Positions 13,934 to 60,366 of a stretch of DNA of 64,000 nucleotides are shown piece after piece (the first letter of the stretch is position 1; each line of letters starts with the position of its first letter). Location of the stretch: the NCBI GenBank assembly GCA_964507625.1, contig CAZDPR010000001.1:5012-69011 (forward strand). Direction: 5' to 3'. The stretch comes from an uncultured Candidatus Saccharibacteria bacterium (GTDB lineage: Bacteria; Patescibacteriota; Minisyncoccia; Phycocordibacterales; UBA1006). Under the pieces are notes generated by a model that was not told the origin of the DNA, searched no databases, and saw nothing but the letters and a program-made list of their open reading frames with translations. Position numbers and translations under genes: made by a program.

Positions 13934-14000
13934 TTCAAAATTATATTGTTTTTATGTATATTTTTAAAAAAATATTTTAAAAATTGATATACTTAATAAT

Positions 14001-14825
14001 ATGTTGTTTTCAAACCATGAAAAATTAGAAGATACTCTTGTTCGAATGCTTTTTCCTGAACGAAAAACCGCAAAAGTACTGTTACGAGAATTATTAAAGG
14101 AAAATCAAGATTATACAATCCAGTCTGTTTATAACTCGTTACGGGAACTTATTCGTTTAGAAATTGTAATAAAAACAGGGTTTTATTACCAAATTAACGA
14201 GGAATGGAAGAATAAAATTATAGAAACCGTATCTGACAGTTCTGATGATATTTTTGATGGAGAAAAGACAATATTTCTCCTTAATTCACTTACTCATTAT
14301 GATCTTCAATGGAAAAACACTATTTTACCACTCCATAATAAATATCCTAAAGATCCTATATTTTTCTATAACTACCATTATATTTGGATTCATTTAGGAG
14401 AAACTCGTGAGAAATCAGAAATTGATTATTATGAGTCATTTTTAAAACAAAAAAGATATGCTTTTTCATTAATTGGATCACATCACCCTTTAGAAGTAGA
14501 GACAAAAAAGATGGTTGAGAATGAATTTGTACGTATTTTTATTGATGATAAACCCATCCAATCATCAGGATATATTACTATTATTAATGATTATATTATT
14601 ACTTCATATTTAACTAAAAAAACACTTTCAGAAATTGATAGTTGTTATAAAAAATCAAAAACTATTCCTGAATTACGCAGGAATATTCAAAAAATTGATT
14701 TTAAATCTAATAAAGTAAAGATTATTATCGAACGCAACCGAGAAAAGGCTAAGAAGTTGCGTAAAAAAATATCAAAAGATTTTTATATTCCACGAGAATT
14801 ACGTGAAAAGTTTGATTTATTTTAA
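14001..14825 (+). CDS. winged-helix (TrmB/MarR-like) putative transcriptional regulator, paralog 1
   Basis: N-terminal IQSVYNSLRELIRLEIVIK wHTH-like segment; divergent from the MTase/LOG pair; C-terminal KVKIIIERNREKAKKLRKKI shared with paralogs. Confidence 0.45.
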   Translation: MLFSNHEKLEDTLVRMLFPERKTAKVLLRELLKENQDYTIQSVYNSLRELIRLEIVIKTGFYYQINEEWKNKIIETVSDSSDDIFDGEKTIFLLNSLTHYDLQWKNTILPLHNKYPKDPIFFYNYHYIWIHLGETREKSEIDYYESFLKQKRYAFSLIGSHHPLEVETKKMVENEFVRIFIDDKPIQSSGYITIINDYIITSYLTKKTLSEIDSCYKKSKTIPELRRNIQKIDFKSNKVKIIIERNREKAKKLRKKISKDFYIPRELREKFDLF

Positions 14826-14859
14826 CTAAAAAACCGCATATGCGGTTTTTTAGTTTTTT
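14824..14859. terminator. terminator (copy 2 of the identical 36-nt repeat)
   Basis: same sequence as 12651-12686. Confidence 0.7.
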
Positions 14860-15371
14860 ATTATCCAATTAATTACCTCTTCGTAATCGTCAGAGAAAAA
14901 TACTTGTCCAGGAAACTCTTTTTCGGCTACAGAGAGGATATATTCTAAATGATCAGCAATACCTCCTGTATTTGTAATTACACCAACCTTTTTCCCTTCT
15001 TCAAGCGCTATTGTAAATTCTGACAGCGTTCCAATACGACCATTTAATAAAAGGATTTTATCAGCATCGTGAATCATTTGTAAACTTCTTGCTGTAAATC
15101 CGGGTATAAACTTAATTTCATTAAAATATTCTGTATGAAGATTATCAAAACGATTATTATGATCTTTTGTGTGTTTATCAGGAGAATATGCGATTGTTTT
15201 TATTCCAAATTCTTTTGCTTTTTGTACTATTAATCCAGGAACTCCTAATGATCCACCTGTCATTATTTCAATATTTTTAATTTCTGAAATTTTTTTAACA
15301 ATTTGATAAATTAAATTTTCTGATTCTTCTGAAATCTTTTCTAATGCAGAAGAAATAATTACTATTTTCAT
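14850..15371 (-). CDS. LOG/SLOG-family protein, copy B
   Basis: 173 aa; MTGGSLGVPG...NGRIGTLSEF; about 40% identical by eye to copy A. Confidence 0.6.
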   Translation of the reverse strand: MKIVIISSALEKISEESENLIYQIVKKISEIKNIEIMTGGSLGVPGLIVQKAKEFGIKTIAYSPDKHTKDHNNRFDNLHTEYFNEIKFIPGFTARSLQMIHDADKILLLNGRIGTLSEFTIALEEGKKVGVITNTGGIADHLEYILSVAEKEFPGQVFFSDDYEEVINWIIKN

Positions 15372-15379
15372 TATAATTA

Positions 15380-16066
15380 TTATCTTTTTTTATAAACTCC
15401 AATAAAATATCCGGGATAAATTCGACCATCAACCTGTTCTGCTGCTGGGTCAAAAACTTCTTTAAAATCAACAAGGTCAAATTTTAAAAGAAAATCTTTA
15501 TTAAAATATTCATTAAAGGTGTGTGTTGGTTCATGAAGTGTAACCGAGTTGTTTAAAATATTACAGGTAACTATTTCTTTTTTAAAATAATCGGCTTTAT
15601 TATTTCTTTTTTCAAAATATTGACGAAACGGGTGGGTCATTAAATAAATAAAATATCCACCTGGTTTTAAAACACGATCAACTTCATTAAAAATTGGATT
15701 CATATCTGAAGATGTCATGATTGCATATTTTGAAACTACAATATCAAATGAATTATTTTTATAGGGAAGATTTTCTGCAAGTCCTACTTTAAAATTAATT
15801 CCTTTATATTTTTCTTTTGCAATTTTAATTAATTCTTCTGATGCATCAACAGCAGACACAGAGAAACCTTTTTGTTTATAATTACTTGCATCATATCCAT
15901 CACCACAAGCAAGGTCTAATAAATTATTATATTTAACCACATCAACTTCATTAATATATTTATAAAATTCACTACGATTTTGATTATTTGAATTATCACC
16001 TAAATTATGATTATTCGAGAAATCTATTGCAAAATTATTGTATTGTTTTCTTATATCAGTATTCAT
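15380..16066 (-). CDS. class I SAM-dependent methyltransferase, copy B
   Basis: LLDLACGDGYD...FDIVVS...LKPGGYFIYL...LHEPTHTFNEYFNKDFL. Confidence 0.7.
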   Translation of the reverse strand: MNTDIRKQYNNFAIDFSNNHNLGDNSNNQNRSEFYKYINEVDVVKYNNLLDLACGDGYDASNYKQKGFSVSAVDASEELIKIAKEKYKGINFKVGLAENLPYKNNSFDIVVSKYAIMTSSDMNPIFNEVDRVLKPGGYFIYLMTHPFRQYFEKRNNKADYFKKEIVTCNILNNSVTLHEPTHTFNEYFNKDFLLKFDLVDFKEVFDPAAEQVDGRIYPGYFIGVYKKR

Positions 16067-16162
16067 GCCCTAATTATATCTTTTTTATATTGACATTTCA
16101 AAATTATATTGTTTTTTGGTATTTTTTTAAACACTTTGTTTAAAAATTGATATACTCTAATT

Positions 16163-16993
16163 ATGATATATTCTAAAAATGAACATTTAGAGGATTTGGT
16201 TATTAAAATATTACTCATTAAAGAGCAGAGTGTGAAAAGTATTCATAAAACATTATCTAGTCAACAAGAAAATTTTACCCTTCAAGGTATTTATCGCGTA
16301 CTTCGAGATCTTATAAAAGATGAAATAGTTATAAAAAGAAAGAATATTTATTTAATTTCTGAGGAGTGGCGTGATCGTGTTATTAATAGTTTTAGAAGAA
16401 AACAAAACAGTATTACCCTTTCGGAACACGAAAGTATTCAATTTAACTTAGATTCTCTTGTCCATCTTGATCAACAATGGAAAAATATAATTATTCCCTT
16501 ACAAGAATCTTTTTCTGATTTTCCTGTTTTTTTATATAATACCCATGAAATTTGGATACATTTAAGTGTTAGTAGAAAAGAAAGTGAATATAACTATTAT
16601 GAATCTTTTAAAGAAAATTCTTATTCTTCGTATTGTCTTTTTGGTGGAAATACAAAGTTTGATAAACAAATAGCTATGGAATTAAAACACGAGAAATTAA
16701 ATATTAATTATGGCTATAAACCTTTTCCAGAAACAGATTATATAATAATAATTGATGATTATATAATTACAACAAGAATTTCTCGGAAAATTGCAAATAA
16801 AATAAAAGATGTTTATTTAAAAAGTAAAAATTTTGATGAACTTGAATATAATTTACAAGAACTTGGTATTGAAAAGAAAAAAGTGAAATTAATCATCGAA
16901 CGTAATCGAGAAAAGGCTAAAATTTTTAGAAAAAGAATTTCTCGTAATTTTTATATCCCAATGCAATTACGAAAACAATTTGATTTGTTTTAA
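16163..16993 (+). CDS. wHTH putative regulator, paralog 2
   Basis: LQGIYRVLRDLIKDEIVIK...ISEEWRDR...KVKLIIERNREKAKIFRKRI; collinear with 14001-14825. Confidence 0.45.
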   Translation: MIYSKNEHLEDLVIKILLIKEQSVKSIHKTLSSQQENFTLQGIYRVLRDLIKDEIVIKRKNIYLISEEWRDRVINSFRRKQNSITLSEHESIQFNLDSLVHLDQQWKNIIIPLQESFSDFPVFLYNTHEIWIHLSVSRKESEYNYYESFKENSYSSYCLFGGNTKFDKQIAMELKHEKLNINYGYKPFPETDYIIIIDDYIITTRISRKIANKIKDVYLKSKNFDELEYNLQELGIEKKKVKLIIERNREKAKIFRKRISRNFYIPMQLRKQFDLF

Positions 16994-16995
16994 TT

Positions 16996-17026
16996 AAAAA
17001 AAACCTTATAAAATAAGGTTTTTTTA
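16996..17026. terminator. terminator of the CCTTATAAAATAAGG family
   Basis: AAAAAAACCTTATAAAATAAGGTTTTTTT. Confidence 0.6.
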
Positions 17027-17290
17027 GAATATTCGCTCTATTCGCTCTAAATATCCTTTTTCTTGTAATTCATTATTAATTTCATTTAATAATTCTGGAA
17101 ACCAAGTAATAATTCTAGATTTAATAATAGGGGAAATATCAAGAAATATATGGTTTTTTTTCTGTATTTGAATACTGGATCGTGGAATAGTAATGGACTG
17201 TTTTTCTAAAAAAGAAAGCGTGGTATTACGAATTACTGTTTCCGCAGGTGGTTTTCCTAAAAAACCCTGTAATCGTTCTGAAATATCCAT
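17024..17290 (-). CDS. hypothetical 88-aa protein downstream of dnaN, possibly DUF721/DciA-like
   Basis: position after dnaN and a ...FLDISPIIKSRIITWFPELLNEINNEL... pattern reminiscent of DUF721; weak. Confidence 0.35.
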   Translation of the reverse strand: MDISERLQGFLGKPPAETVIRNTTLSFLEKQSITIPRSSIQIQKKNHIFLDISPIIKSRIITWFPELLNEINNELQEKGYLERIERIF

Positions 17291-17293
17291 ATT

Positions 17294-18400
17294 TTACCGA
17301 TTCATCGGCATTACGAGGTAGAGAAATGAAGTATCTCCTTGCCCTTTAATAACTAATGGTTTTTTAATATCTAACCATTCAAAATATAATGAATCACTAG
17401 AAATACTCGCAATTCCTTCTTGGATATATCGTGCATTTAACCCAACTTCAATAGTATTCCCTTGAACTACCGCATCAACAGAAGTGTGGATTTCACCTAC
17501 AGTAGTGTTTTCAGCTTGAAAAATAAGGTTTTTTTGATCTGGTTGTACAGAAACATGAATATGATGGTAATGATTTGAAAAAAGAGGAAGTGTTCGTAAC
17601 ACTTGAATTATATCACTTTTTAAAATAATCGCCTGAGTTGTATGCTCTGTAGGAATAATTTTTGTGTAATCAGGGAAATTTCCATGGGTTAATTGAGCAG
17701 TAATGAATATATTTTTTGTTTCAATATGCACCTGATGTTCACTGATAGTAATTATAATATCTTCTTCGGTATCAGAAAGTACTTTCAGAATATCTTGAGC
17801 ATTTTTAATAGGGAGAAGAAATGAGTTTATTAAATCAGCATTTTTAAAGGAAATTTTCTTTTCTGCAAGACGGAACGCGTCTGTTGCTACGAAATAAAGG
17901 TTTTTTTCTTTTCCATGAATATAAATACTGGAAAGTTCTGGTTTTATATCACTTTGTGATCCTGCAAACATTACTGAACGAATACCGGTAATAAAATCTG
18001 TCACAGGAAGCGAAATTTCAGCCTCCTCACCACTTTTCTTTGGTAGTTCAGGGAAATCATCAAAAGGTACTGTTTTAAGTTTTGTACGGCTTTTTTTTGA
18101 CTGCATATGGAGTACATCACCTTCTAATTCACAAAGAATTGTATCTTGATTTGAAAAACCGTTAAGTACCTGAGCAAAAGTGTTTCCAGGAATAGCACAA
18201 ATACCTGATTGTTCTACTTTTGCTGGAATAATAATTTCTGTACCTGTATGGAGATTAGTTGCACGAAAGGTAACTCTTCCATCAGAACTTGCAATACATA
18301 AAATACAGGATAATACCGGTAGGGTAGGGTGTTTACCTGTTACTTTCTCTGCCTTACTCACTGCTGATATTATTTTTTCATGAGAGCATTCAAATTTCAT
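17294..18400 (-). CDS. dnaN: DNA polymerase III beta subunit (sliding clamp)
   Basis: 368 aa; MKFECSHEKIISAVSKAEKVTGKHPTLPVLSCI... three-domain clamp; follows dnaA. Confidence 0.9.
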   Translation of the reverse strand: MKFECSHEKIISAVSKAEKVTGKHPTLPVLSCILCIASSDGRVTFRATNLHTGTEIIIPAKVEQSGICAIPGNTFAQVLNGFSNQDTILCELEGDVLHMQSKKSRTKLKTVPFDDFPELPKKSGEEAEISLPVTDFITGIRSVMFAGSQSDIKPELSSIYIHGKEKNLYFVATDAFRLAEKKISFKNADLINSFLLPIKNAQDILKVLSDTEEDIIITISEHQVHIETKNIFITAQLTHGNFPDYTKIIPTEHTTQAIILKSDIIQVLRTLPLFSNHYHHIHVSVQPDQKNLIFQAENTTVGEIHTSVDAVVQGNTIEVGLNARYIQEGIASISSDSLYFEWLDIKKPLVIKGQGDTSFLYLVMPMNR

Positions 18401-18652
18401 AATATAGTATTTTTTTAAATTTATAAATTTTTCAAATAATATTATTAGTATAGTATGTGGATACTGTGGATAAATCCAGAAACCTTTTTAAATAAAACTA
18501 TTTTAATAATTCGACCTGTGTATAATAATTATTATTATACACATATGAAATGTAGATAAATTGAAGGGAATGTAAAAAGAAATTGTATCCAAAATGTTTT
18601 CAGAAATTATCCCTCTCTATTTTCCCTGATTATAAACAAGTTTTTCCACAGA
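18401..18652. promoter_or_regulatory. oriC segment between dnaA and dnaN (DnaA boxes plus AT-rich unwinding element)
   Basis: TGTGGATAC at 18457 and perfect TGTGGATAA at 18466; flanking AT-rich run AAATTTATAAATTTTTCAAATAATATTATTAG. Confidence 0.6.
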
Positions 18653-20005
18653 TTAAGTTTGTAACATTGCACGAATTTGTTCTATATCATGAATGAGTGA
18701 AGAGTTTTCTTGAAGTTCTTTTGTAATTTTCTCATAAGAGTGCATTACTGTTGTATGATCTCGTCCACCCATTTTCTTTCCAATATGAGGAAAAGATATA
18801 TTAAAATCTTCTCGTAAAATATACATTGCTATTTGACGAGCTTCTACCACCTCTTTTCTTCTATTTTTTTCATACATTGCAGATTCTTCAATGTTATAAA
18901 AATGAGCAACAACTTTAATAATATCCTCAATAGAAATATTTTTCTTCGGTTTTATATTGTTTTTTATTAATAACTTAATTTCCTGAAGGTTTAATTCCCT
19001 TTTTCTGAGCTCCATTTGCATTATTAATGTATTAATAATCCCCTCTAATTCACGAATATTACCTTCTACATGAGAAGCAATATAATCAACTGTTTCTTCA
19101 GAAAGAGCTATTTTATATTGATTTATTTTAGATCGTAATATAGCTATACGAGATTCATATTCAGGGCGAGCTACATCAACAATCATACCTGCGGAAAACC
19201 TTGATTTTAAACGATCTTCGAGTCCTGCAATATAGTTTGGGTGTTTATCTGATGAAAAGATTAATTGTCGGTTTCTGTCATGTAAGGTGTTAAAAAGGTG
19301 GAATAATTCTTCCTGCACCCGTTCTTTTCCGCTTGAAAAGAACTGAATATCATCCATAATAATCACATCATAACTACGATATCGGTTTCTAAACTGATCA
19401 ATACGCTTATTTTGTAACGATTGAATATAATCATTTAAAAAGGTTTCAGAACTGACATAGAAAATATTTAATCCAGGGTATTTTTCTACCAAAGCATTTC
19501 CAAGAGCTTGAATAAGGTGAGTTTTTCCAATCCCCGTTGATCCGTAAATAAAAAATGGATTAAAAGTACCAAGACTTTTTAATACTGTCTGAGATGCTGA
19601 ATAAGCAACTTCATTAAATGGTCCAATAATAAATGTTTCAAATGTGTATTTTGGGTTTAAATTACTACTTTTTGGTAAAGAATGATCCAAAGGTAGTTGA
19701 GGAGCTTCTGGAGGCACAGGAGCCGTTTTTTGAGGCACAGGAGCCGTTTTTTGAGGCTTTTTAGCAATAATAAACTCAATAGATCGAATAGTATCTTTAT
19801 GGTTACGGATTGCTTTTAAAACATCTTTATAAAATTTAGTAGTAAGCCAATCCTTAACAAATTCATTAGGAACACCTACAAAGAAAACCCCCTCCTCTTC
19901 TTTTACTGCATGAGTATTTTTAAACCATGTGGTAAAATTTGCTTTTGAGACGTTCATTTCGATTTCCGCAAGAATCGTTTCCCAGAGTGTGTGTATATCG
20001 TACAT
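18653..20005 (-). CDS. dnaA: chromosomal replication initiator DnaA
   Basis: 450 aa; Walker A GSTGIGKTHL, IDDIQF, C-terminal HTTVMHSYEKI DNA-binding domain; internal PQKTAPVPQKTAPVP duplication in the linker. Confidence 0.9.
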   Translation of the reverse strand: MYDIHTLWETILAEIEMNVSKANFTTWFKNTHAVKEEEGVFFVGVPNEFVKDWLTTKFYKDVLKAIRNHKDTIRSIEFIIAKKPQKTAPVPQKTAPVPPEAPQLPLDHSLPKSSNLNPKYTFETFIIGPFNEVAYSASQTVLKSLGTFNPFFIYGSTGIGKTHLIQALGNALVEKYPGLNIFYVSSETFLNDYIQSLQNKRIDQFRNRYRSYDVIIMDDIQFFSSGKERVQEELFHLFNTLHDRNRQLIFSSDKHPNYIAGLEDRLKSRFSAGMIVDVARPEYESRIAILRSKINQYKIALSEETVDYIASHVEGNIRELEGIINTLIMQMELRKRELNLQEIKLLIKNNIKPKKNISIEDIIKVVAHFYNIEESAMYEKNRRKEVVEARQIAMYILREDFNISFPHIGKKMGGRDHTTVMHSYEKITKELQENSSLIHDIEQIRAMLQT

Positions 20006-20182
20006 AGGCTTTAAAATAAATAACGAAACGAGCTAATAAAAAGATATCCACAGTATACACTGTTTTTATATTTTATTAAAATGTCCTTAAAAGAGGAAAA
20101 AACTGTGGAAAACTTGTTGAAACAGTGGATAACTAAACAAGGACTTGTCTTTTTTGTTTTTTTGTGTAATATAAGAAATATT
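20006..20182. promoter_or_regulatory. oriC segment upstream of dnaA, plus dnaA and rpmH promoters
   Basis: DnaA-box-like ATATCCACA at 20044, TGTGGAAAA at 20104, AGTGGATAA at 20123. Confidence 0.5.
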
Positions 20183-20317
20183 ATGTCAGTGACCTATCAA
20201 CCAAAAGTCGGAAAAAGAAAGCGAAAGCATGGTTTTTTAGTACGACAAGCAACTACTGCTGGACGAAATGTTATTCGTAACCGTCGCCGTAAAGGACGAG
20301 CTAAACTAAGTGTTTAA
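20183..20317 (+). CDS. rpmH: 50S ribosomal protein L34
   Basis: [44 protein letters not shown]; classic L34. Confidence 0.85.
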
Positions 20318-20318
20318 A

Positions 20319-20351
20319 TAAAAAATCCTTATAAAATAAGGATTTTTTATT
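20319..20351 (+). terminator. terminator of the CCTTATAAAATAAGG family
   Basis: AAAAAATCCTTATAAAATAAGGATTTTTTATT. Confidence 0.6.
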
Positions 20352-20385
20352 TTAATTTTTATTATAATCATGATATACTTATTAT

Positions 20386-20914: not shown

Positions 20915-20942
20915 TTATTTTATTAGTATTTATTAAATTTAT

Positions 20943-21644: not shown

Positions 21645-21645
21645 T

Positions 21646-21671
21646 AAAAACACTCGTACGAGTGTTTTTAT
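21646..21671. terminator. bidirectional terminator
   Basis: AAACACTCG-tac-GAGTGTTTTTATT. Confidence 0.65.
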
Positions 21672-21676
21672 TATGA

Positions 21677-23197: not shown

Positions 23198-23225
23198 AAG
23201 TATACCATAAATATTAAAAATTAAA

Positions 23226-47069: not shown

Positions 47070-47876
47070 TTATATATTTTTATTAAAAAGTTCCTGAACA
47101 CGTCTTTTATATGTTATATCTGCATTAAAATAATCATCTGAAAAGTTGGGATTTGTAATATAAATATCTGTTTCAAATACTCCTTTTTCAAATTCCATAA
47201 AAGTAAACATTTTATCAGCAAGTTCTTTAGGTGTAATCCAAAATTCAGGATTTACTTTTGTTGAAAAAATAAAGGGTCGTTCGATCATTTCATCAACCGT
47301 AAAGATTGTGCTTGTGTTAAATAGATATATACTAACATTTTGAAAAGTTCCCTGGATTTTCTTTGAAAAGTTTTTTACCACATCTCGTGATTTTTTAAAT
47401 GATTGAAAAACTGGAATATTGTGCATATCAGCAAGTGAACCAAAAGAGACAACTCTTAGTTCTTTGTTTAAACTATTTGTTTTTTCAGCTAGAATCTCAA
47501 CCATTTCTATATAAGATTTTGCAACAAGATTATAAACCTCGTCATCAATTCCGTCATTGTCAAAATCATTTGCAACATTAATTTCTAGATTACTATTAAT
47601 TTCAGTTTTAAATTCACCAACAAGATGAAAATACTCAACAGAATTTACATTCGTAAAAGATATTTTTTTTAGAAAGTCTTTAATGCTATTTGAGTCAGCA
47701 AGGTCAACTTTAACAATTAAGTGGTGCTCAGGCAGTTTTTCAATACTTGAAATATCTACTCCTCTACGAGAAATACCATAAACTATAGTATTTTTTTGAC
47801 TAATATATTTTCGAGCAACTTCTTGCCCAATTGATCCGGTAATTCCAGACACGATAATAATTTTTTTATTTTCCAT
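47070..47876 (-). CDS. NAD(P)-binding Rossmann-fold protein (SDR/epimerase-like)
   Basis: N-terminal IIIVSGITGSIGQEVARK glycine-rich dinucleotide-binding motif. Confidence 0.5.
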   Translation of the reverse strand: MENKKIIIVSGITGSIGQEVARKYISQKNTIVYGISRRGVDISSIEKLPEHHLIVKVDLADSNSIKDFLKKISFTNVNSVEYFHLVGEFKTEINSNLEINVANDFDNDGIDDEVYNLVAKSYIEMVEILAEKTNSLNKELRVVSFGSLADMHNIPVFQSFKKSRDVVKNFSKKIQGTFQNVSIYLFNTSTIFTVDEMIERPFIFSTKVNPEFWITPKELADKMFTFMEFEKGVFETDIYITNPNFSDDYFNADITYKRRVQELFNKNI

Positions 47877-47986
47877 ATTGAAATAATAGCATTTATTTAA
47901 TAAAAAGTCAATTTATAATAATAAAATATGTATTTAGTAAAAAAATACTTTACTTTTTATTAAAAAACAGATATGATACAAGGTAT

Positions 47987-48802
47987 ATGAACCTCACAAA
48001 ACCAGAAACTACCGAGGAACGAATCATTTCCCTCCTCCTTAAAAATTCGCTTTCTGGGGTTGAGTTATTAGAAATACTTGATGTTTCTGGTAAAAAAATT
48101 ACAAAACAAGCGTTATATAGTGTTTTAAGAAAATTAATCCAAGATGAAATAGTCGTAAAACATGCAAAAATGTTTTCAATTTCTCGATTATGGCTCAAAA
48201 ATATGGCGAATATGTTTACCTCGGCTCAGGATCGTTACGGGATTGAACTTGAAAAAAACGACTTTCTTTCATTGCATGAAGGTGACAAGATTTCATATAC
48301 CTTTAAAAATCCATACGAAGCAGACCAGTTTTGGGGTCATGCATTTGATATTCTAATTGATAAAACACCATTAGAAATTCCTATTGTATTATACAATCCC
48401 CATCAGTGGTTTTTACTAGTTCGTAAGGACAGTGAATATCAGTTATTAGAACGAATTAGTAAAGAGGGAAAAAAGTTACATAACCATGTTGGGAGTTCGA
48501 ATGCGTTAGATAGATATGTAGAAAAGTATTTTAATTTACCGGGATTGCAATATGTAATGAATGAACAAGGGTATTTTGAAGCAAGGAATTATTATATCAA
48601 TATATTTAATAACTATATTATTGAAGTATATATTGATGAAAAAGTTGCCGAAGAAATTGATCGTTTTTATGAGCAATATACAGATTTTGATAAAATCGCT
48701 GAAAAGAAATTACAATCTATTGTATCCCAGGGTAAAACAAAACTTATTATTTCTCTGAATACCAAAAAAGCAGATAGATTAAGAGGGTTGATTGAAGCTT
48801 AA
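47987..48802 (+). CDS. wHTH putative regulator, paralog 3 (same family as 14001 and 16163)
   Basis: KQALYSVLRKLIQDEIVVK...ISRLW...NPHQWFLL...KTKLIISLNTKKADRLRGL; collinear motifs with paralogs 1 and 2; divergent from the SDR-like gene. Confidence 0.45.
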   Translation: MNLTKPETTEERIISLLLKNSLSGVELLEILDVSGKKITKQALYSVLRKLIQDEIVVKHAKMFSISRLWLKNMANMFTSAQDRYGIELEKNDFLSLHEGDKISYTFKNPYEADQFWGHAFDILIDKTPLEIPIVLYNPHQWFLLVRKDSEYQLLERISKEGKKLHNHVGSSNALDRYVEKYFNLPGLQYVMNEQGYFEARNYYINIFNNYIIEVYIDEKVAEEIDRFYEQYTDFDKIAEKKLQSIVSQGKTKLIISLNTKKADRLRGLIEA

Positions 48803-54923: not shown

Positions 54924-54958
54924 TAGGTCGAAGTTATATTTTTAATTATATATATTTT

Positions 54959-55303
54959 ATGGATGCACAAAAATTTCATGAGACGCTTGTTCAAGAATTT
55001 AATCTCCAAGCGTACTCACCACAAGAGCAAGCACAATATATCGATCAGTTGGGCGAATTAGTACTCCAAGGGGTATTACTCAAAGCGTTTTCTGCTATTT
55101 CAGATGAACAAGCTGATCAAATGGAAAAATCTATGGAACAGGGAATGGAGCCTGAACAGATGATGAGCATGCTCCAATCAATGATCCCAGGGTTTGCAGA
55201 ATTGGTTCGAGACGAGGTGATGCAAGTAAAACAAGATCTTGCCACCGGGACCAATTCATCAGACGTTACACCTTCAACAAATTCTGATTCTATTTTTGGA
55301 TAA
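54959..55303 (+). CDS. acidic, Q/M-rich hypothetical 114-aa protein
   Basis: ORF only; follows the 1012-aa gene; terminator after it. Confidence 0.35.
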   Translation: MDAQKFHETLVQEFNLQAYSPQEQAQYIDQLGELVLQGVLLKAFSAISDEQADQMEKSMEQGMEPEQMMSMLQSMIPGFAELVRDEVMQVKQDLATGTNSSDVTPSTNSDSIFG

Positions 55304-55337
55304 TAAAAAAGAGCATTCGAGACATGCTCTTTTTTGT
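55304..55337 (+). terminator. terminator
   Basis: AAAAAAGAGCAT-tcgagac-ATGCTCTTTTTTG. Confidence 0.65.
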
Positions 55338-55374
55338 ATAAAAAACATAATGTTCCTGTGATATACTTTATTAT

Positions 55375-57297
55375 ATGAATTTTGATTATTTAAATGATTT
55401 AAACAATGAACAGCGAAAAGCGGTAATGCATACAGCAGGACCGCTTTTAATTGTTGCTGGTGCAGGAACTGGAAAAACAAAAACATTAACCTATCGAATT
55501 ATGCATTTAATAGAACAAGGGGTAGATGCGCATGCAATTTTAGCAATTACTTTTACCAATAAAGCAGCTAATGAAATGAGGGAACGATTACGTCATATGC
55601 TCGGCGAACACAGAACTATGCCAATGATGAAAACTTTTCACGGACTCGGAGTGTATATACTGCGTAGGTTTTATCAAGAAGTGGGAATTCGCAAAGAGTT
55701 TGCTATTCTTGATACTCAGGACACAATGAAATTAATTAAAGAATGCATGGAAGAATTATCGATTGACCCCAAAAAATATGACCCACGAACCATCCGTACT
55801 ATTATTAGTAATGCAAAAAATGCAGGAAAATCAGTTTTTGATTTTGAATCAGAAATACACAACGAAACATCGAATTTTGCTTTACAAATTTGGAAACTTT
55901 TTGAAACCAAGAAAAAAGCAGAACACGCACTTGATTTTGATGATTTATTAATAAAAACACGCGATGTTTTAAAAAATAATGCATTGGTACGCGAAACATT
56001 GCAAAAACAATTCCAGTATATTCATATTGATGAGTATCAGGACACCAATCAGGTACAATATGAAATTGCAAAAATTTTGGCGGCAGATGATCACAATATT
56101 TGCGCAGTGGGCGATACTGATCAAAATATCTACAGTTGGCGTGGAGCAAATATTAAAAATATGCTCAATTTTGAAAAAGATTTTCCTGGAACCATTACTA
56201 TTATGCTCGAACAAAACTATCGTTCGTCAGGAAATATTTTATCTGTAGCTGATGCGATTATTACCAAAAACACTGCTCGTATTGAAAAAACATTGCGCAC
56301 AGAAAAATCAGCAGGTGAAAAAATTGCAGTATATATAGGACTGAACGAGTCCCATGAAGGAAACTTGATTGCAGGTGAAATCAAGCAAATCTTATCCCAT
56401 GGAGTTCCAGCAAACGAAATTGCAATATTATTCCGAACACATTTTCAATCACGAGTATTAGAAGAATCGTGTTTGAAAAATGATATTCCGTACCACGTAT
56501 TGGGGGTAAAATTCTTTGATCGTAAAGAAATCAAGGATCTTGTCTCGTATATTCGTGCAAGCGTTAATCCAGACAGTTTAACTGACGTAAAGCGAGTTAT
56601 TAATGAACCTAAAAGAGGTATTGGAAAGGTAGCTTTAGCAAAAATTTTTGCAAACCAGGCGAATGATCTTTCGGGGGCCGCAGCACAAGGGTATCGAGAC
56701 TTTCAAATGATATTGCACGATATTCGTACCAGTGCTTCAGAAAAAATACCATCAGAGGTAGTGCGATTTGCAATAGACCGATCTGGAATGAAATATGCTT
56801 ATATGAATGGTCCAGCAGATGAACAGGAGCGGTTAGAAACGATGGAGGAATTGGTAACCTATGCGCTTCGTTATGATGAATTACCAATTGGAGATGGAAT
56901 ATTGCAAATGCTTGAAGATATTGCATTATTATCAGAACAGGACAATATCAGAGATGATCGACCTGCGGTAAAGTTAATGACCGTGCATGCTGCAAAAGGG
57001 CTCGAGTTTAATTATGTATTTGTATCAGGAATGGAGCAGGGATTATTCCCTCATGCAGGATATGACCAGAAAAAAGGTAAGGAAGAGCAAGAAGAAGAGC
57101 GTCGTCTGTTTTATGTAGCAGTAACCCGAGCCCGGGAACAGCTGTATCTGTCCTATGCATATTCTCGAACCGTATACGGACAACAGAATTTTAATGCTCC
57201 GAGTGAATTTTTAGCCGATATTCCGGATACTTTGTTGGAATATCAAGAAACGGATGCACCAGAAGAACCCTTAAAAACCGTGTATTTGGAGTGGTAA
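55375..57297 (+). CDS. pcrA: UvrD/PcrA/Rep-family superfamily 1 DNA helicase
   Basis: motif I AGAGTGKTKTLT, II DEYQDTN, III, V, VI VAVTRAREQL; 640 aa, lacking the usual C-terminal tail. Confidence 0.8.
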   Translation: MNFDYLNDLNNEQRKAVMHTAGPLLIVAGAGTGKTKTLTYRIMHLIEQGVDAHAILAITFTNKAANEMRERLRHMLGEHRTMPMMKTFHGLGVYILRRFYQEVGIRKEFAILDTQDTMKLIKECMEELSIDPKKYDPRTIRTIISNAKNAGKSVFDFESEIHNETSNFALQIWKLFETKKKAEHALDFDDLLIKTRDVLKNNALVRETLQKQFQYIHIDEYQDTNQVQYEIAKILAADDHNICAVGDTDQNIYSWRGANIKNMLNFEKDFPGTITIMLEQNYRSSGNILSVADAIITKNTARIEKTLRTEKSAGEKIAVYIGLNESHEGNLIAGEIKQILSHGVPANEIAILFRTHFQSRVLEESCLKNDIPYHVLGVKFFDRKEIKDLVSYIRASVNPDSLTDVKRVINEPKRGIGKVALAKIFANQANDLSGAAAQGYRDFQMILHDIRTSASEKIPSEVVRFAIDRSGMKYAYMNGPADEQERLETMEELVTYALRYDELPIGDGILQMLEDIALLSEQDNIRDDRPAVKLMTVHAAKGLEFNYVFVSGMEQGLFPHAGYDQKKGKEEQEEERRLFYVAVTRAREQLYLSYAYSRTVYGQQNFNAPSEFLADIPDTLLEYQETDAPEEPLKTVYLEW

Positions 57298-57320
57298 ATT
57301 TTTTATAGTATACTAGATTT

Positions 57321-59525
57321 ATGAATCAAATTTTTTTTAGAAACCAGCAAAGTATTTTAAAAGAAAAACCAGGTGATAAAAAAATTGAAAGTTTTGAAGA
57401 CCTTTCAAAGAATTTTGATTTCTATAACCTAGATCAAAAGGGATATAGTAATTTTGTAAAAGATTTCTCAAATGAATTTCTTGAAAGAGAATTTAAATTG
57501 GGGAGAATAATAAAAGACCCTACAGGAAGGCTTGTTGTAAATACTCAGACAGAGGATTTTATTAAAAGTGCTATTGATAGAATTAGTAAATTTAAAACAA
57601 GAAGGCCTGACGATGTTTCATTTTTACTTCTTTTATATAGTGATATTTTTATAAAAACTGAAAATGGACTAGAAAAATTCCTAGATATTCCAAAAACCAA
57701 AGATCATTTATTGACTGGATCAGAAGGTTTTCATGATTTTCTCTCCTTAAAAGGTGTTTCTCCAAAAGTGGAAATAGTTTTACCAGATGGAACAAAAACA
57801 AATCCTTTAGAAATCTCTTTTTTGAGAGCATGTAGGAAATATAACATTTCTAGACAAAAGGGTGATAAGCTTTTTTATACTAATCCAGAAACAGGAAAAA
57901 GAGAAAGATTTTTCATAAAAAGAATTGAAGATGGTTCTATAAAAATGAAATATTTTAAAGAAATGTTTAATATAGAAAAAATAAAAGAAATCCTACATAA
58001 TTGCTTCGAGGAAGAGATAATTAAAACTACAGATTTTCGACTAGACAATAGAGATAATTTTGGCTTAGATGAAAAAAGTTTTGAAAATAAAAAAGTTTTT
58101 TTTGGTCCCAAGTATGCAAGTTTTACCACTATTCCTGGCTATTCAATACGTTATTATTTAGGTAGAAATAAAATACCAGGTATTAATATTGACTGGAAGC
58201 CAACAATAAAATTATCTAGACTAGACAAAAACACCGCTGCGTTTATAGACTCAAGTTATGGTGTTAATAAAATTATTGCAACACTTGACTTATTCCAAGA
58301 TAAATATGCTATAGAGAAAATGTTTCTGACCGCAAAAGAGTTAGGAGTTAAAGATCCTGATGCAAATTTAGTACTCAATAATGATTATACAGAAAAGAAC
58401 ATACAATCTTTTGATATTAAAAATATTTTACCTCAATTTGTAAAGGAAAACCCACTAGATCACCTAGATTTCTTAAGTCAGGTTACTGATGTAAAAAATG
58501 TTATAAATATGACTAGAAGTGTATTAGAAAAATTAAACATTTCTGTTCTTGAAATACCATTCAAACAACAGGTATTACTGTTCGGCTCTCTTAGTCAAAT
58601 AGGAAAGGAGGATGAGGTTATAAATTTAGTTAAAAAATTTAAAATTAATGGATTAAAAACTTTCCTTTCTCTTGAACATGGTGGACAAGAAATGGGTGAT
58701 AAAATTCTTGAGCTAGGTAAGATACTCGAACAACACGATGCAGAGCGTGTATTTACTGGATACGCACAAATTATTGATCAAGCAGATTCGTTAAAAAATC
58801 GTCTAGAAAATTCATTACAAGATCGGGATATAGTCTCACTTGAACTAAAGAAGAAAATCCCCCACCAGATATATGATGCGTTGTTACTTCGTGCAAAAGA
58901 TATTTTAATAGGCGCTCATATGGTTGCAACAGGAACGATTGAAGGAAAACTCGATATTGATGAAGTGTGTAATGCACTTGCAGGTATTACTAAAATGCTT
59001 CATATTATTAATCATTTACATACCCAGGATTACTATCAGTTTACTAAAACACTTGAGACACCCCAAAATCATAAATATCATATTATTGATTCTGTAACAC
59101 AACATGAATACATCTTAAAAATTTTCTTGCGACCATATGCAGAAAAAAACGCTCAAGCCCGTGCCAATTTTGAATTATCTTTTGACACAAAAAATCCAGA
59201 TCCAATATTACAAAAAACATTTTATAATGAAATTATTTCACATACCCAGAATAAAAAGATATCAGGTTCAGTATTACGTATTGGTATTGATCGAGAGGAT
59301 TATGATGGAGTTGGTCGTGTATCACTCGATATAGGAAGGTCAGAACGCAGTGATACAGAACTTACTCGTACTGGAGATATACTTGGAAACTTACTTTCAT
59401 ATGCATCTATCGATGGCCACCATACCACAGAACCATTCAGTTCAGAATTTGGTGATCCAGAAACATTCGCACAACTTGTAAACCTACTAGGAACGTCATT
59501 AATAAAACAAAAACAGCCTAATTAG
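57321..59525 (+). CDS. hypothetical 734-aa protein
   Basis: long ORF with native codon usage; no recognisable motif. Confidence 0.45.
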   Translation: MNQIFFRNQQSILKEKPGDKKIESFEDLSKNFDFYNLDQKGYSNFVKDFSNEFLEREFKLGRIIKDPTGRLVVNTQTEDFIKSAIDRISKFKTRRPDDVSFLLLLYSDIFIKTENGLEKFLDIPKTKDHLLTGSEGFHDFLSLKGVSPKVEIVLPDGTKTNPLEISFLRACRKYNISRQKGDKLFYTNPETGKRERFFIKRIEDGSIKMKYFKEMFNIEKIKEILHNCFEEEIIKTTDFRLDNRDNFGLDEKSFENKKVFFGPKYASFTTIPGYSIRYYLGRNKIPGINIDWKPTIKLSRLDKNTAAFIDSSYGVNKIIATLDLFQDKYAIEKMFLTAKELGVKDPDANLVLNNDYTEKNIQSFDIKNILPQFVKENPLDHLDFLSQVTDVKNVINMTRSVLEKLNISVLEIPFKQQVLLFGSLSQIGKEDEVINLVKKFKINGLKTFLSLEHGGQEMGDKILELGKILEQHDAERVFTGYAQIIDQADSLKNRLENSLQDRDIVSLELKKKIPHQIYDALLLRAKDILIGAHMVATGTIEGKLDIDEVCNALAGITKMLHIINHLHTQDYYQFTKTLETPQNHKYHIIDSVTQHEYILKIFLRPYAEKNAQARANFELSFDTKNPDPILQKTFYNEIISHTQNKKISGSVLRIGIDREDYDGVGRVSLDIGRSERSDTELTRTGDILGNLLSYASIDGHHTTEPFSSEFGDPETFAQLVNLLGTSLIKQKQPN

Positions 59526-59537
59526 GCTGTTTTTGTT
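59506..59537. terminator. bidirectional terminator between convergent genes
   Basis: AAAACAAAAACAGCCTAATTAGGCTGTTTTTGTT. Confidence 0.65.
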
Positions 59538-60366
59538 CGTGGAGTGGATGTTTTTCTTTTGCAGTATTCCAAATAAAATTGAATATAATGAGGAATGTTG
59601 TATACGTAGCATAATCGTCAATAATAGTAGTAATCATTGTTTCTCCAAAAGAAGTAATACCAACTTTTTGTTTACCATAGAGAATAATTTGGGCTGGAAT
59701 ATTAAAAACCTCAATAGGAACAACTTGACGTTCTACAAAGTGTTTTTCATCAAATTCTTTTACCCAATGAAAAGTATCTTCTACTATTGGAGTGATTGCT
59801 TTAGTATGGATATTGTTTGTCACCTGTTTTTGAATTTGTTTTAATATTTTATCATCTACTTCGGGGTGGTTTCGATCAGCTGGTGATTGAATAAGAAAAA
59901 TATCTTTTTTTTCACTGATAATATCAGACCATAATCGTTCAAGCCCCTTGATACCTTCAAAAAATTGAACCCCTGGTTTTTCTTGAAATAAATTAAACTG
60001 AGATAAAAACGTGCCAAGATTCGCAGAAACAGTTTCTTTTGCAAGTTGGATATTTTTTTCTTGACTTTCCAACATGTCGATCAGGCGATCGGGATGAGAA
60101 GGGGAATAGGTGGTTACTGTCCCAGTACCACCTTTTTTCTGTACAAGTCCTAAATGCTCCAATTGTTCAAGTGTTTTATAAACTAACCCCCTTTTAACAC
60201 CTGTCCATTTTGAAAGTTCTCCAGCTTTTTGAGCACCTTTTTCTAATAATGACTGATAAATAAGCGCTTGATCTGCTGAGAGGCCTGATTGAATAAGAAT
60301 GTTTTCTTCTGTCATACCTCGATAGTATATACTATTTTGTTTTGTCATGCAAATATGACAAAACAT
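59518..60366 (-). CDS. wHTH (TrmB-like) putative regulator, divergent paralog 4
   Basis: N-terminal ...ALIYQSLLEKGAQKAGELSKWTGVKRGLVYKTLEQLEHLGLVQKK wHTH; divergently transcribed from the ncRNA-candidate promoter. Confidence 0.45.
   Translation of the reverse strand: MFCHICMTKQNSIYYRGMTEENILIQSGLSADQALIYQSLLEKGAQKAGELSKWTGVKRGLVYKTLEQLEHLGLVQKKGGTGTVTTYSPSHPDRLIDMLESQEKNIQLAKETVSANLGTFLSQFNLFQEKPGVQFFEGIKGLERLWSDIISEKKDIFLIQSPADRNHPEVDDKILKQIQKQVTNNIHTKAITPIVEDTFHWVKEFDEKHFVERQVVPIEVFNIPAQIILYGKQKVGITSFGETMITTIIDDYATYTTFLIIFNFIWNTAKEKHPLHEQKQPN

Follow-up and report, generated by a model that had tools for sequence, protein, structure and literature searches.

Putative TrmB-like one-component switches with clade-specific palindromic operators in an uncultured Candidatus Saccharibacteria bacterium

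TrmBL2 (Pyrococcus furiosus PF0496 / Thermococcus kodakarensis TK0471; PDB 5bpd, 5bqt) is described in PMC4877046 and PMC3031468 as an abundant chromatin protein of Archaea that is largely non-specific and acts as a global repressor. The recognition site of TrmBL1/Tgr, the Thermococcales glycolytic motif, is the inverted repeat TATCAC-N5-GTGATA; sites over or downstream of the promoter lead to repression, upstream sites to activation, and a table of the same paper reports auto-regulation of TrmBL1 (PMC4158304). TrmBL1/Tgr is archaeal (TBP/TFB/BRE-TATA promoters), sugar-responsive and ~340 aa long, with a C-terminal sugar-binding subdomain. TrmB, the mal operon regulator, combines the domains PF01978 and PF11495, and its sites are likewise palindromic (TACT-N3-AGTA and TACT-N7-8-GAGTA; PMC4158304). 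Outside this group, MarR, IclR, PadR and TetR-type pairs display the same divergent layout of regulator and enzyme operon as the loci described below.

The window analysed here is the whole stretch of 64,000 nt from contig CAZDPR010000001.1 (GCA_964507625.1) of an uncultured Candidatus Saccharibacteria bacterium. The explanation that we favour, and hold to be rather probable, is that its regulators P1, P2 and P3 are sequence-specific, probably dimeric, TrmB-like autoregulating one-component switches, each with its own palindromic operator and likely ligand-sensing. It builds on homology, predicted fold, motif conservation, protein-DNA covariation and promoter geometry, from which we infer DNA binding, dimerisation, autorepression, ligand sensing and any effect on the cargo genes. 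The genes concerned are:

12677-13222, minus strand: SLOG/LOG-like gene 1, second in cargo operon 1 (PF18306 LDcluster4, E=2.7e-22)
13226-13903, minus strand: SAM-dependent methyltransferase 1, MTase-1 (Methyltransf_11, E=1e-22; the ORF runs to 13933)
14001-14825, plus strand: P1, winged helix and HKD-less PLD-like domain, predicted TrmBL2-like fold
14824-14855, no strand: terminator-like hairpin (14-bp stem, then a T-run) where P1 and SLOG-2 converge
14850-15371, minus strand: SLOG/LOG-like gene 2 (PF18306, E=9.8e-16)
15380-16066, minus strand: SAM-dependent methyltransferase 2, MTase-2 (Methyltransf_11, E=2.8e-22)
16163-16993, plus strand: P2, paralog of P1 with Arg at recognition-helix position 45
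47070-47876, minus strand: atypical SDR-like (Rossmann) gene, cargo of P3 (weak N-terminal matches to adh_short and Epimerase)
47987-48802, plus strand: P3, paralog of P1 and P2
59518-60315, minus strand: P4 (PF01978, E=2.6e-11), predicted TrmBL2-like fold with a long coiled-coil helix; the ORF runs to 60366

The original prediction combined all four regulators into one winged-helix family. P1, P2 and P3 are full-length paralogs: P1 shares 41% identity with P2 and 25% with P3 over full length (BLASTP, E=8e-17), and the collinear motif blocks listed in that prediction are seen across their alignments. None of the three matches a Pfam or NCBIfam model, PF01978 (TrmB) included. Their profile retrieves 1,838 cluster representatives at E<=1e-3, all ~265-285 aa long, and the organism-named loci among the family matches are Patescibacteria/CPR; by sequence similarity, P1-P3 belong to a large family without database model, the named-organism members of which are Patescibacteria. 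The AF2 model of the P1 type (pLDDT 86.5, pTM 0.72) shows an H-H-H-wing motif and, C-terminal to it, an alpha/beta domain. Its top full-length Foldseek match is TrmBL2 (E=2.7e-6), with low TM-scores (~0.36) because the domain orientation differs. The combination of winged helix and PLD-like domain predicted for P1-P4 resembles TrmBL2 (~260-265 aa); differences of P1-P3 from the latter are the undetectable sequence match to PF01978, the missing long coiled-coil helix (only H67-78, versus H76-110 in P4) and their apparently locus-specific character with defined palindromes. PF11495, the TrmB effector domain, is matched by none of the four proteins, P1-P3 thereby matching neither domain of TrmB; TrmBL2 itself presumably lacks the extra C-terminal sugar-binding subdomain, too. 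His126 is nearly invariant in the P1-P3 family; reading the sequence shows it followed by Y-I-W in P1, and the PLD-like domain has no HxK(x)4D (HKD) motif. As modelled, this C-terminal domain without catalytic HKD most likely binds a small molecule.

P4 is not placed in this family by its sequence, though it has the predicted fold in common with it. It scores 43.7 bits against PF01978 (gathering score 25.6), matches the NCBIfam TrmB and TrmBL1 models weakly, and its AF2 model (pLDDT 89.5) finds TrmBL2 as best Foldseek match (E=3.7e-14). BLASTP detects no similarity between P4 and P1-P3, and neither profile recovers the other group; profile-profile comparison yields E=0.048, and a broader alignment E=1.4e-4 at 53% probability. 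The link of P1-P3 to P4 and TrmB is suggested by predicted structures together with this weak profile-profile score. P4 is a separate TrmB-family lineage, with a common fold but no demonstrable membership, and the grouping by sequence is "3 + 1" instead of four. Its true start is probably M18 (60315) rather than 60366, because homologues align to ~91% of the long ORF and the extra codons contain a conserved palindrome.

Every regulator is divergently paired with a distinct partner as originally claimed, i.e. twice with a LOG plus MTase pair, once with the SDR-like gene and, for P4, with a strong promoter facing away from it. The pairing is kept in many other genomes and across different genomic neighbourhoods; the combination of SDR-like and P3-type genes recurs in L002/L009, L032, L033, L034 and L036. 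SLOG/LOG-like gene 1 additionally matches NCBIfam TIGR00725 (E=1.4e-15), PDB 1rcu and the LOG structure 5zbj, and the best PDB and NCBIfam matches of MTase-1 are of the UbiE/BioC/YcgJ type (small-molecule class). MTase-1 probably starts at 13903 instead of 13933, because in the translations residue 11 onward of the ORF (MNNKIKKQYNNF) aligns with the start of MTase-2 (MNTDIRKQYNNF). The hairpin between P1 and SLOG-2 probably works in both directions, judging from its stem and T-run.

Predicted promoters and putative operators in the window are as follows:

13910-13938, minus strand: cargo-1 promoter, -35 TTGAAA (13938-13933), 17 nt, -10 TATAAT (13915-13910)
13963-13981, no strand: palindrome O1, TTTAAAA-aaata-TTTTAAA, centre 13972, overlapping the -35 of the P1 promoter
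13985-13993, plus strand: P1 promoter, extended -10 TGaTATACT, 7 nt before the ATG, leaderless
16073-16101, minus strand: cargo-2 promoter TTGAAA-17-TATAAT, an 11/12 match whose end is 7 nt from the ATG at 16066
16126-16144, no strand: palindrome O2, TTTAAAC-acttt-GTTTAAA, centre 16135 (P2-clade consensus TTAAAC-N5-GTTTAA)
16148-16156, plus strand: P2 promoter, extended -10 TGaTATACT, 6 nt before the ATG
47883-47911, minus strand: SDR promoter TTGACT-17-(TG)TATTAT, stopping 7 nt short of the ATG at 47876 and holding the "GTCAA" variant
47936-47954, no strand: palindrome O3, AGTAAAA-aaata-CTTTACT, centre 47945 (P3-clade consensus AGTAAAA-N5-TTTTACT)
60343-60360, no strand: P4-type palindrome TGTCAT-GCAAAT-ATGACA, conserved in 6/6 P4-type loci
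60431-60459, plus strand: promoter TTGACA-17-(TGc)TATACT, pointing away from P4, kept in 6/6 loci

This genome generally uses leaderless starts, with a -10 box 5-9 nt before the ATG in 22/36 long ORFs and an SD in none of the 36. The cargo-1 promoter (11/12 match, joint best in a 2.4-kb scan) has its -10 ending 7 nt before the MTase ATG, and the predicted start coincides with that ATG at 13903. Relative to the centres of the 19-bp palindromes, regulator -35 boxes lie at -8..-3 or +4..+9, and in ~25/30 loci the minus-strand cargo promoter shows a -35 at -34..-39 and a -10 that ends at -62 (+/-1). This count takes in 5/7 scanned P3-clade regions, which have no visible sequence alignment to the P1/P2 regions yet possess the same geometry.

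The operators are likely the unique 19-bp palindromes that overlap each regulator's own -35. A cognate palindromic site for each regulator had been predicted and is indeed found, but the sites differ from the motif then proposed, being clade-specific and located ~30 bp beyond TTGACATTTCAA. O1 and O2 are each the sole perfect match to their clade consensus in the 64-kb window and O3 is the best match, with one mismatch, to its own; the right arm of O3 is the -35 (TTTACT) of the P3 promoter. The O1 palindrome occurs in 10/13 P1-clade upstream regions (L018, a near-duplicate of L006, included), and the palindromes altogether recur in ~35 loci of several CPR lineages, 27-42 nt upstream of the ATG, with degenerate or shifted copies in L002a, L007b and L002c. 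Across loci both arms change symmetrically (TAAAC/GTTTA, TCAAC/GTTGA, TGAAC/GTTCA, TAAAG/CTTTA). Identity between the intergenic regions of M1 and M2 is 84%, versus 60-71% in flanking coding DNA, and their differences concentrate in the inner operator bases and the spacer. Shuffled 100-nt regions yield any one A/T-rich 7-5-7 palindrome with a probability of 1-10%; the case rests on recurrence and covariation.

Lys/Arg45 of the recognition helix is associated with C:G at the innermost half-site position (P2), other residues with A:T (P1, P3), and the P3 operator differs at the outer two bases. K or R at position 45 coincides with the inner C in 15/15 loci, compared to 0/18 for other residues (Fisher p ~1e-9, phylogeny uncorrected, and loci inside one clade are not independent of each other). 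An extra K45 locus, L043, fits the rule and raises the count to 16/16 Lys/Arg loci, and the extra non-K/R loci L044 and L045 are without symmetric C. A neighbour-joining tree places the K/C state in the P2 clade, L027, L002a (nested in P1), L029 (nested in P3) and L043, a distribution that implies at least 3-4 independent co-changes of residue 45 and the inner base in these sequences. Q and Y (positions 41 and 44) are constant or nearly so, positions 40 and 45 variable. A tentative rule connecting K40 to an outer G is broken by L029 and L043.

According to the original prediction, the imperfect palindrome TTGAcATtTCAA, with a GTCAATTTATAAT variant, is the operator shared by all members. Both motifs are present: the 12-mer TTGACATTTCAA is exact in both MTase modules (13927-13938 and 16090-16101), and GTCAATTTATAAT lies at ~47908-47920, upstream of P3. 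TTGAC is retained at a fixed place in ~22/26 P1/P2-clade regions, which exceeds the usual conservation of a promoter spacer, and the motif may have a secondary regulatory role. As the operator, however, we consider it unlikely. TTGACATTTCAA is most plausibly a pair of adjoining -35 hexamers on opposite strands: TTGAAA on the minus strand is the -35 of the best-scoring promoter of the region, i.e. the 11/12 MTase promoter, and TTGACA on the plus strand has its own -10, 16-18 nt downstream, in several loci. The 3' half is degenerate in many loci (TTGACTGTACAA, TTGACTAGTAAA, TTGACAAGCTCA), and the P1 and P2 clades have an identical motif despite their different recognition helices, without covariation with the protein. 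Upstream of P3 it stands on the opposite strand, where the "GTCAA" variant belongs to the minus-strand -35 (TTGACT-17-TATTAT) of the SDR gene. With one mismatch allowed, the 12-mer has 4 occurrences versus 2.0 expected by chance.

The palindromes could instead function at the RNA level, as attenuator, terminator or processing-site hairpins of a leader whose transcription begins at the upstream TTGACA promoter, since symmetric compensatory changes would suit a stem in RNA and a binding site for a dimer equally well and several loci have a plus-strand promoter match with a predicted start at the palindrome's left edge. This is very improbable: the predicted hairpins are weak (-2.8, -5.4 and -1.9 kcal/mol), no T-run terminator follows the palindrome, and an RNA stem does not predict that the innermost pair tracks a recognition-helix residue of the adjacent protein. 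The regulator -10 moreover lies downstream of the palindrome in most loci, which would leave the palindrome outside the main leaderless mRNA. Equally hard to credit is a reading of P1-P3 as enzymes instead of regulators, namely winged helix-PLD nucleases, e.g. endonucleases that form a restriction-modification-like or defence module together with the neighbouring methyltransferase, although two modules have a methyltransferase neighbour, SLOG domains are known in defence systems, the MTase core matches PADLOC mad2 and His126 is near-invariant. That histidine is followed by Y-I-W in P1 and not embedded in an HKD motif, the MTases are of the small-molecule type, sequence reading finds no (D/N)PPY-type DNA-MTase motif in MT1, P3-type genes partner an SDR-like gene instead, PADLOC has no match for P1-P3, and the TrmB family possesses the same inactive PLD-like domain (TrmBL2 matches). 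According to PMC4877046 and PMC3031468 the best structural match, TrmBL2, shows little sequence specificity in coating DNA, and P1-P3 might by analogy be non-specific chromatin or architectural proteins, the palindromes belonging to another factor. Three paralogs with one enzyme cassette each, clade-specific palindromes that co-vary with the regulators' own recognition helices, and the single occurrence of each palindrome in 64 kb make this a far-fetched reading.

Under the preferred explanation, TrmB-like switches with individual operators, each of P1-P3 would recognise its own 19-bp palindrome (7-N5-7, core T-A-A-A ... T-T-T-A). As the palindrome overlaps the -35 region of the leaderless promoter from which the regulator itself would be transcribed, the bound protein should repress its own gene, and the fixed distance between operator and cargo promoter suggests that the same dimer would also control the divergent leaderless enzyme operon. 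The operator centre lies at ~-69 from the predicted cargo start and 31.5 bp from the cargo -35 centre. A simple cargo repressor would not sit at this position, and the cargo promoters are near-consensus; if the cargo is affected at all, we lean tentatively, by analogy to TrmBL1/Tgr, towards activation or relief of promoter competition. The N5 spacer geometry is common to these palindromes and the TrmBL1/Tgr site, but P1-P3 loci possess bacterial sigma-70-type leaderless promoters and A/T-rich 7-bp arms. With MarR, IclR, PadR and TetR-type pairs they share one palindromic operator in a ~100-bp control region and the autoregulation proposed here. P1-P4 have no significant Pfam match to those families and differ in the predicted PLD-like effector fold, and unlike in the classical pairs the operator covers the -35 of the regulator, whereas from the cargo -35 it is ~30 bp away on the upstream side.

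P4 would follow the same plan: its palindrome TGTCAT-N6-ATGACA covers the P4 -35 and keeps a constant 70 nt to the strong divergent promoter. The centre of the palindrome precedes the P4 ATG by 36.5 nt, and the site overlaps the -35 region of the promoter of P4 itself, whose -10 is TATACT (60324-60329, minus strand); the distance from the palindrome to the divergent promoter is 70-71 nt in 6/6 P4-type loci. The stretch downstream of that promoter is GC-richer, with few long ORFs and no Rfam match.

The original prediction regarded the regulators as expanded within 50 kb. P1-, P2- and P3-type orthologues keep the same partner type in other CPR genomes, one of which contains all three types within 6 kb; judged from these orthologues the paralogy is old, and not a local expansion. 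We propose that small operator changes, read by the variable positions of the recognition helix, keep the paralogs apart.

The following regulators, divergent partners and one neighbouring ORF are present in the window:

14001-14825, + strand: P1, winged-helix regulator of 274 aa
16163-16993, + strand: P2, winged-helix regulator of 276 aa
47987-48802, + strand: P3, winged-helix regulator of 271 aa
59518-60366, - strand: P4, long ORF of a TrmB-type regulator
12677-13903: cargo operon 1, divergent from P1, a Methyltransf_11 SAM-methyltransferase (MTase-1) followed by a SLOG/LOG-like gene (PF18306, TIGR00725-like)
14850-16066: cargo operon 2, divergent from P2, a Methyltransf_11 SAM-methyltransferase (MTase-2) followed by a SLOG/LOG-like gene (PF18306, TIGR00725-like)
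47070-47876: atypical SDR-like gene, divergent partner of P3
57321-59525, + strand: convergent ORF of 734 aa without a significant Pfam domain, overlapping the 3' end of P4 by 8 nt

The four regulator ORFs of the original prediction are thus all found in place, as are the two methyltransferase and LOG operons and the SDR-like gene it had named as divergent partners. Its collinear blocks across P1, P2 and P3 are borne out by 41% identity between P1 and P2, and by 25% full-length identity between P1 and P3 (BLASTP, E=8e-17). Translations suggest that MTase-1 probably starts at 13903, because residue 11 onward of its ORF (MNNKIKKQYNNF) aligns with the N-terminus of MTase-2 (MNTDIRKQYNNF). The start of P4 is probably M18 (60315), since the long ORF is covered to about 91% by homologues of 251-276 aa and its extra N-terminal codons contain a conserved palindrome. 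The P2 module is followed directly downstream by dnaN and dnaA (17294-20005, - strand), and the tandem P1 and P2 modules therefore border the probable replication origin region of this genome; the linkage was not seen in other loci. Both methyltransferases (13226-13903 and 15380-16066, - strand) match PADLOC mad2 (E=2e-20 and 7e-15), with matches confined to the generic SAM-binding core of this 492-aa protein, which we take as a fold-level likeness and no evidence of a defence system.

P1, P2 and P3 are true paralogs and P4 belongs to a separate, probably related lineage, an arrangement of "3 + 1". The four-member family originally proposed does not hold in this respect, as BLASTP detects no similarity of P4 to P1-P3, and HMMs of the two families, run on all ORFs of the window, recover their own members alone (three and one, respectively) with no cross-match. 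An hhalign comparison of the P1-P3 family with the P4/TrmB family is weak (E=0.048, probability 1%), and with a broader alignment it reaches E=1.4e-4 and a probability of 53% over 109 collinear columns. P4 matches PF01978 (E=2.6e-11, 43.7 bits vs a gathering cutoff of 25.6), whereas P1, P2 and P3 do not match this model in the Pfam search even at E<=1. Neither P1-P3 nor their profiles find anything significant in Pfam, NCBIfam, PADLOC or PDB sequences; significant matches to the MarR, PadR, ArsR and IclR models of Pfam are likewise absent from P1-P3, and P4 shows sub-threshold MarR and HTH_5 matches only.

The P1-P3 family is large. A word-indexed search returned 54 relatives of P1, all about 275 aa long and without Pfam domains, and a profile search returned 1,838 representatives (clustered at 50% identity) at E<=1e-3, of which 275 reach E<=1e-30; their length is 265-285 aa throughout. 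Ten sampled distant members gave no Pfam match except for a single sub-threshold one to the TrmB N-terminal model (E=0.0036). The carrier genomes are mostly Patescibacteria/CPR (Saccharibacteria, Minisyncoccia, Nomurabacteria, Falkowbacteria, Paceibacterota); the remaining labels are one "uncultured bacterium" and one Flavobacteriaceae, the latter of which we suspect to be a mis-binned MAG.

The AlphaFold model of P1 (pLDDT 86.5, pTM 0.72) contains a canonical winged helix, made up of helices 9-17, 24-33 and 40-52 and the wing 56-65, then a short helix (67-78) and finally an alpha/beta domain. Its only full-length Foldseek matches are TrmBL2 chains (E=2.7e-6). With regard to the MarR, PadR, ArsR and IclR families, structural matches span the generic winged helix only. 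The P4 model (pLDDT 89.5) also has TrmBL2 as its best match (E=3.7e-14), followed by Zucchini, F13 and PLD4. The architecture of the TrmB family, a winged helix joined to a PLD-like domain without HKD, is thus seen in predicted rather than solved structures, and the models indicate that P1-P4 all share its TrmBL2 type; with about 265-280 aa, all four also resemble TrmBL2 in length. Sugar-sensing TrmB, TrmBL1 and Tgr, in contrast, carry a C-terminal PF11495 effector-binding domain, to which none of P1-P4 shows a match. PLD enzymes carry a catalytic HxK(x)4D motif, which is missing here: after the near-invariant His126, P1 continues with Y-I-W-I-H-L-G and P3 with Q-W-F-L-L, both Lys at +2 and Asp at +7 are lacking, and the HTK of P4 is not conserved within the P4 family. 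In TrmB and TrmBL2 a long amphipathic coiled-coil helix serves dimerisation. This helix is present in P4 and absent from P1-P3, the interdomain helix measuring 35 residues (76-110) in the P4 model and only 12 (67-78) in that of P1.

The 12-mer TTGACATTTCAA (13927-13938 and 16090-16101) had been put forward as the operator, which all family members would bind. It is best read as two abutting -35 hexamers, TTGACA of the + strand and TTGAAA of the - strand, the latter being the predicted -35 of the methyltransferase promoter. The best two promoter matches of the region (TTGAAA-17-TATAAT, 11/12, at 13938>13910 and 16101>16073) stop 7 nt short of the respective methyltransferase ATG. Upstream of P3, the "GTCAA" variant is likewise a - strand -35, belonging to the promoter match TTGACT-17-TATTAT that ends 7 nt before the SDR ATG. 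A different palindromic element lies some 30 bp beyond TTGACATTTCAA. The alignment of the upstream regions of all loci yields a 19-bp palindrome of 7-N5-7 geometry, much more informative than the 12-mer, with one predicted form per clade:

13963-13981: O1, predicted operator upstream of P1 (P1 clade), TTTAAAA-N5-TTTTAAA
16126-16144: O2, predicted operator upstream of P2 (P2 clade), TTTAAAC-N5-GTTTAAA
47936-47954: O3, predicted operator upstream of P3 (P3 clade), AGTAAAA-N5-TTTTACT, one mismatch

O1 and O2 are the sole perfect matches to their consensus in 64 kb, and O3 is the best match to its own. Variants in other loci are symmetric on both arms, namely TTTAAAG/CTTTAAA (L001), TGTAAAG/CTTTACA (L044), TCAAC/GTTGA (L010, L029, L043) and TGAAC/GTTCA (L027). 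A single A/T-rich palindrome arises in 1-10% of shuffled 100-nt regions, and the operator case draws its weight from recurrence in a fixed position and from covariation with the protein, not from any single palindrome.

This covariation involves the recognition helix (residues 40-52), in which Y44 is invariant, Q41 nearly so and R48 common, while positions 40 and 45 vary. All 15 loci whose regulator has Lys or Arg at residue 45 carry C as the innermost base of the half-site; the 18 loci with another residue there (V, N, I, A, S, C) all carry A or, in two cases, G, counting L032, which has C on one arm only (Fisher p ~1e-9, a statistic that ignores phylogeny). Three distant members fetched later as a test all fit the rule: L043 (K45) has ATTCAAC...GTTGAAT, L044 (D45) has ...AAAG/CTTT... 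and L045 (Q45) lacks C. A neighbour-joining tree places the K/C state in the P2 clade, in L027, in L002a (inside P1), in L029 (inside P3) and in L043, a scatter that implies at least three or four independent co-changes. It is mainly because of this covariation that the palindromes are assigned to the adjacent proteins, and it also accounts for how cross-talk between the neighbouring P1 and P2 modules can be prevented. A second candidate rule, K40 with an outer G, is true for most of the P3 clade but was dropped because L029 and L043 break it. The control regions of the two methyltransferase modules (13904-14000 vs 16067-16162) are 84% identical and contain a 27-nt identical block, against 60-71% identity in the flanking coding DNA and about 41% in the proteins; their differences cluster in the inner operator bases and the spacer. 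Either an unusually strong constraint on the entire promoter scaffold or a local gene conversion sparing the operator core would produce this likeness.

Two points speak against reading the palindromes as RNA hairpins: the predicted stems, at -1.9 to -5.4 kcal/mol, are weak, and covariation with an amino acid is not expected of an RNA stem. A reading of P1-P3 as non-specific chromatin proteins is contradicted by predicted sites that are clade-specific and present once each in the window. The methyltransferases next to P1 and P2 might further suggest a nuclease, restriction-modification or other defence module; however, P1-P3 lack the HKD motif, the methyltransferases are of small-molecule type (Methyltransf_11/UbiE-like) with DNA-methyltransferase motifs absent, and the partner of P3 is an SDR-like gene and not a methyltransferase. 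PADLOC gives no match for P1-P3, and for the SLOG protein of operon 1 weak SLOG cross-matches only.

Shine-Dalgarno sequences are absent from all 36 long ORFs of the whole window (at least 200 aa), and 22 of these possess a TAnnnT -10 box 5-9 nt before the ATG, often as TGnTATACT; these sequence features suggest that the genome by default uses extended -10 promoters and leaderless mRNAs. In the regulator genes the -10 ends 6-9 nt before the ATG and the -35 is located inside the palindrome, at -8..-3 or +4..+9 from its centre, two classes about one helical turn apart. Binding should therefore occlude the regulator's own promoter. In about 25 of 30 loci the cargo promoter on the - strand keeps a fixed position with respect to the palindrome centre: the -35 occupies -34..-39 and the -10 ends at -62 (+/-1). 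The operator centre thus lies near -69 from the predicted cargo start, and 31.5 bp (three helical turns) separate it from the middle of the cargo -35. This spacing covers five of the seven scanned P3-clade regions, which show no visible sequence alignment to the P1 and P2 regions. A constant distance from the operator to the cargo ATG was considered and discarded, as the ATG varies (about 69-75 nt by coordinate subtraction) and the -10 is fixed at -62. The + strand TTGACA was likewise dismissed as the -35 of the regulator's main promoter, given that no consistent -10 follows 16-18 nt downstream in the P1 and P2 modules; in some loci it is possibly a secondary distal promoter.

The fixed spacing between the predicted operator and the cargo promoter argues for functional coupling of either sign. 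TrmBL1 and Tgr repress from sites over or downstream of a promoter and activate from upstream sites (PMC4158304), which by analogy suggests autorepression together with activation of the cargo. On this model the regulator would sit over its own -35 and repress itself, and would activate the cargo from an upstream site. Promoter competition is also allowed, as the cargo promoters are near consensus and abut the + strand TTGACA. Autorepression by P1-P3 we regard as likely, and we lean towards control of the cargo, whether positive or negative, by the predicted operator.

The pairing of regulator and cargo follows the regulator clade in the 45 fetched loci. P1-type genes are always divergent from an operon of MT1-type methyltransferase and SLOG1-type genes. 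P2-type genes are divergent from MT2-type operons, often with two methyltransferases and SLOG2, and some of their partners (L011-L013, L016) consist of a single, more divergent methyltransferase without a SLOG gene; with one or two methyltransferases and SLOG present or not, the cargo composition of the P2 clade is thus variable. Tandem methyltransferase paralogs before SLOG are usual in P2-type modules of other genomes:

L007, 5377-6719: P2-type module with two methyltransferases
L010, 2526-3868: P2-type module with two methyltransferases
L021, 656-2000: P2-type module with two methyltransferases
L024, 2046-3382: P2-type module with two methyltransferases
L026, 2029-3385: P2-type module with two methyltransferases

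P3-type genes are divergent from an SDR-like gene in L002/L009, L032, L033, L034 and L036. The modules occupy unrelated genomic neighbourhoods. The tandem of a P1 and a P2 module recurs in L002/L009 and L007, and in L002 the P1, P2 and P3 types all lie within 6 kb. Clade-matched pairing and recurrent tandems therefore place the duplication before the divergence of these lineages, and not in a recent local expansion within 50 kb, as had been supposed. P3 and P4 lineages are sometimes neighbours elsewhere too, a P4-like TrmB gene adjoining a P3-type gene in two metagenomic loci (L031, 4425-5162; L032, 1767-2273).

The surroundings of P4 were compared over six P4-type loci, all of which share the palindrome TGTCAT-GCAAAT-ATGACA (60343-60360 in the window). 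This palindrome covers the -35 region of a leaderless promoter, with its centre 34.5-36.5 nt upstream of the ATG. A strong divergent promoter, TTGACA-17-TGCTATACT (60431-60459), lies at a fixed 70-71 nt from the palindrome and faces 750-1,080 nt without called genes, and a convergent ORF of 564-759 aa without a Pfam domain overlaps the 3' end in all six. This layout, with the operator over its own -35 and a fixed spacing to the divergent promoter, matches the design of P1-P3. The stretch 60431-64000 (+ strand), which may be a large CPR non-coding RNA locus, has a GC content of 40-55%, especially in 60466-61717, compared to about 30% elsewhere, and few long ORFs. Rfam searches at the gathering threshold and at E<=1 found nothing convincing in it, universal 16S and 23S motifs are absent, and Pfam finds nothing in the ORFs neighbouring P4. 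Its first ~457 nt are 76% identical to L040, and beyond them there are short blocks recurring twice within a locus; past about 450 nt, BLAST among the six loci detects no more than patchy or repeated conservation. By eye the stretch contains many local hairpins and a terminator-like element near 61680-61717. The type III hammerhead ribozyme model (RF00008) matches it over the full model length at 63459-63534 (+ strand), but below threshold (30 vs a gathering cutoff of 48.5 bits, E=0.0013).

As a kind of system, a divergently transcribed one-component regulator with a palindromic operator is ordinary, and the fold is known from the TrmB superfamily. New are a large CPR family without a Pfam or NCBIfam model, outside PF01978 and without the coiled-coil helix; explicit predicted operators with a simple putative specificity rule, Lys/Arg45 with C:G; and a fixed-geometry, apparently leaderless, bidirectional control region. 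The account as a whole is drawn from comparative genomics. To our knowledge, almost nothing is known of gene regulation in CPR bacteria, and none of the top-ranked papers of a literature search links TrmB-type regulators with Patescibacteria. As a speculation that we ourselves hold to be rather improbable, this Patescibacteria family of TrmBL2 fold and position-45 code, and the P4 lineage likewise, would constitute insulated, ligand-gated bidirectional switches. From one fixed site the regulator would shut its own leaderless promoter and turn on a small cassette, a LOG-like hydrolase with a methyltransferase or an SDR-like enzyme, for the modification of nucleotides or other metabolites. Sensing of the cassette's substrate or product would fall to the inactive PLD-like domain. 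In the P4 lineage, a switch of this kind would act on a conserved locus of at least 1 kb that is GC-rich and largely non-coding.

The predicted operators, the residue-45 rule and the compact architecture of fixed spacing are directly testable. A sizeable regulator family without a model (>1,800 representatives) is assigned by its predicted fold to the largely archaeal TrmB superfamily, and, on the predicted code, the change of a single base pair per half-site can prevent cross-talk between duplicated modules that lie side by side.
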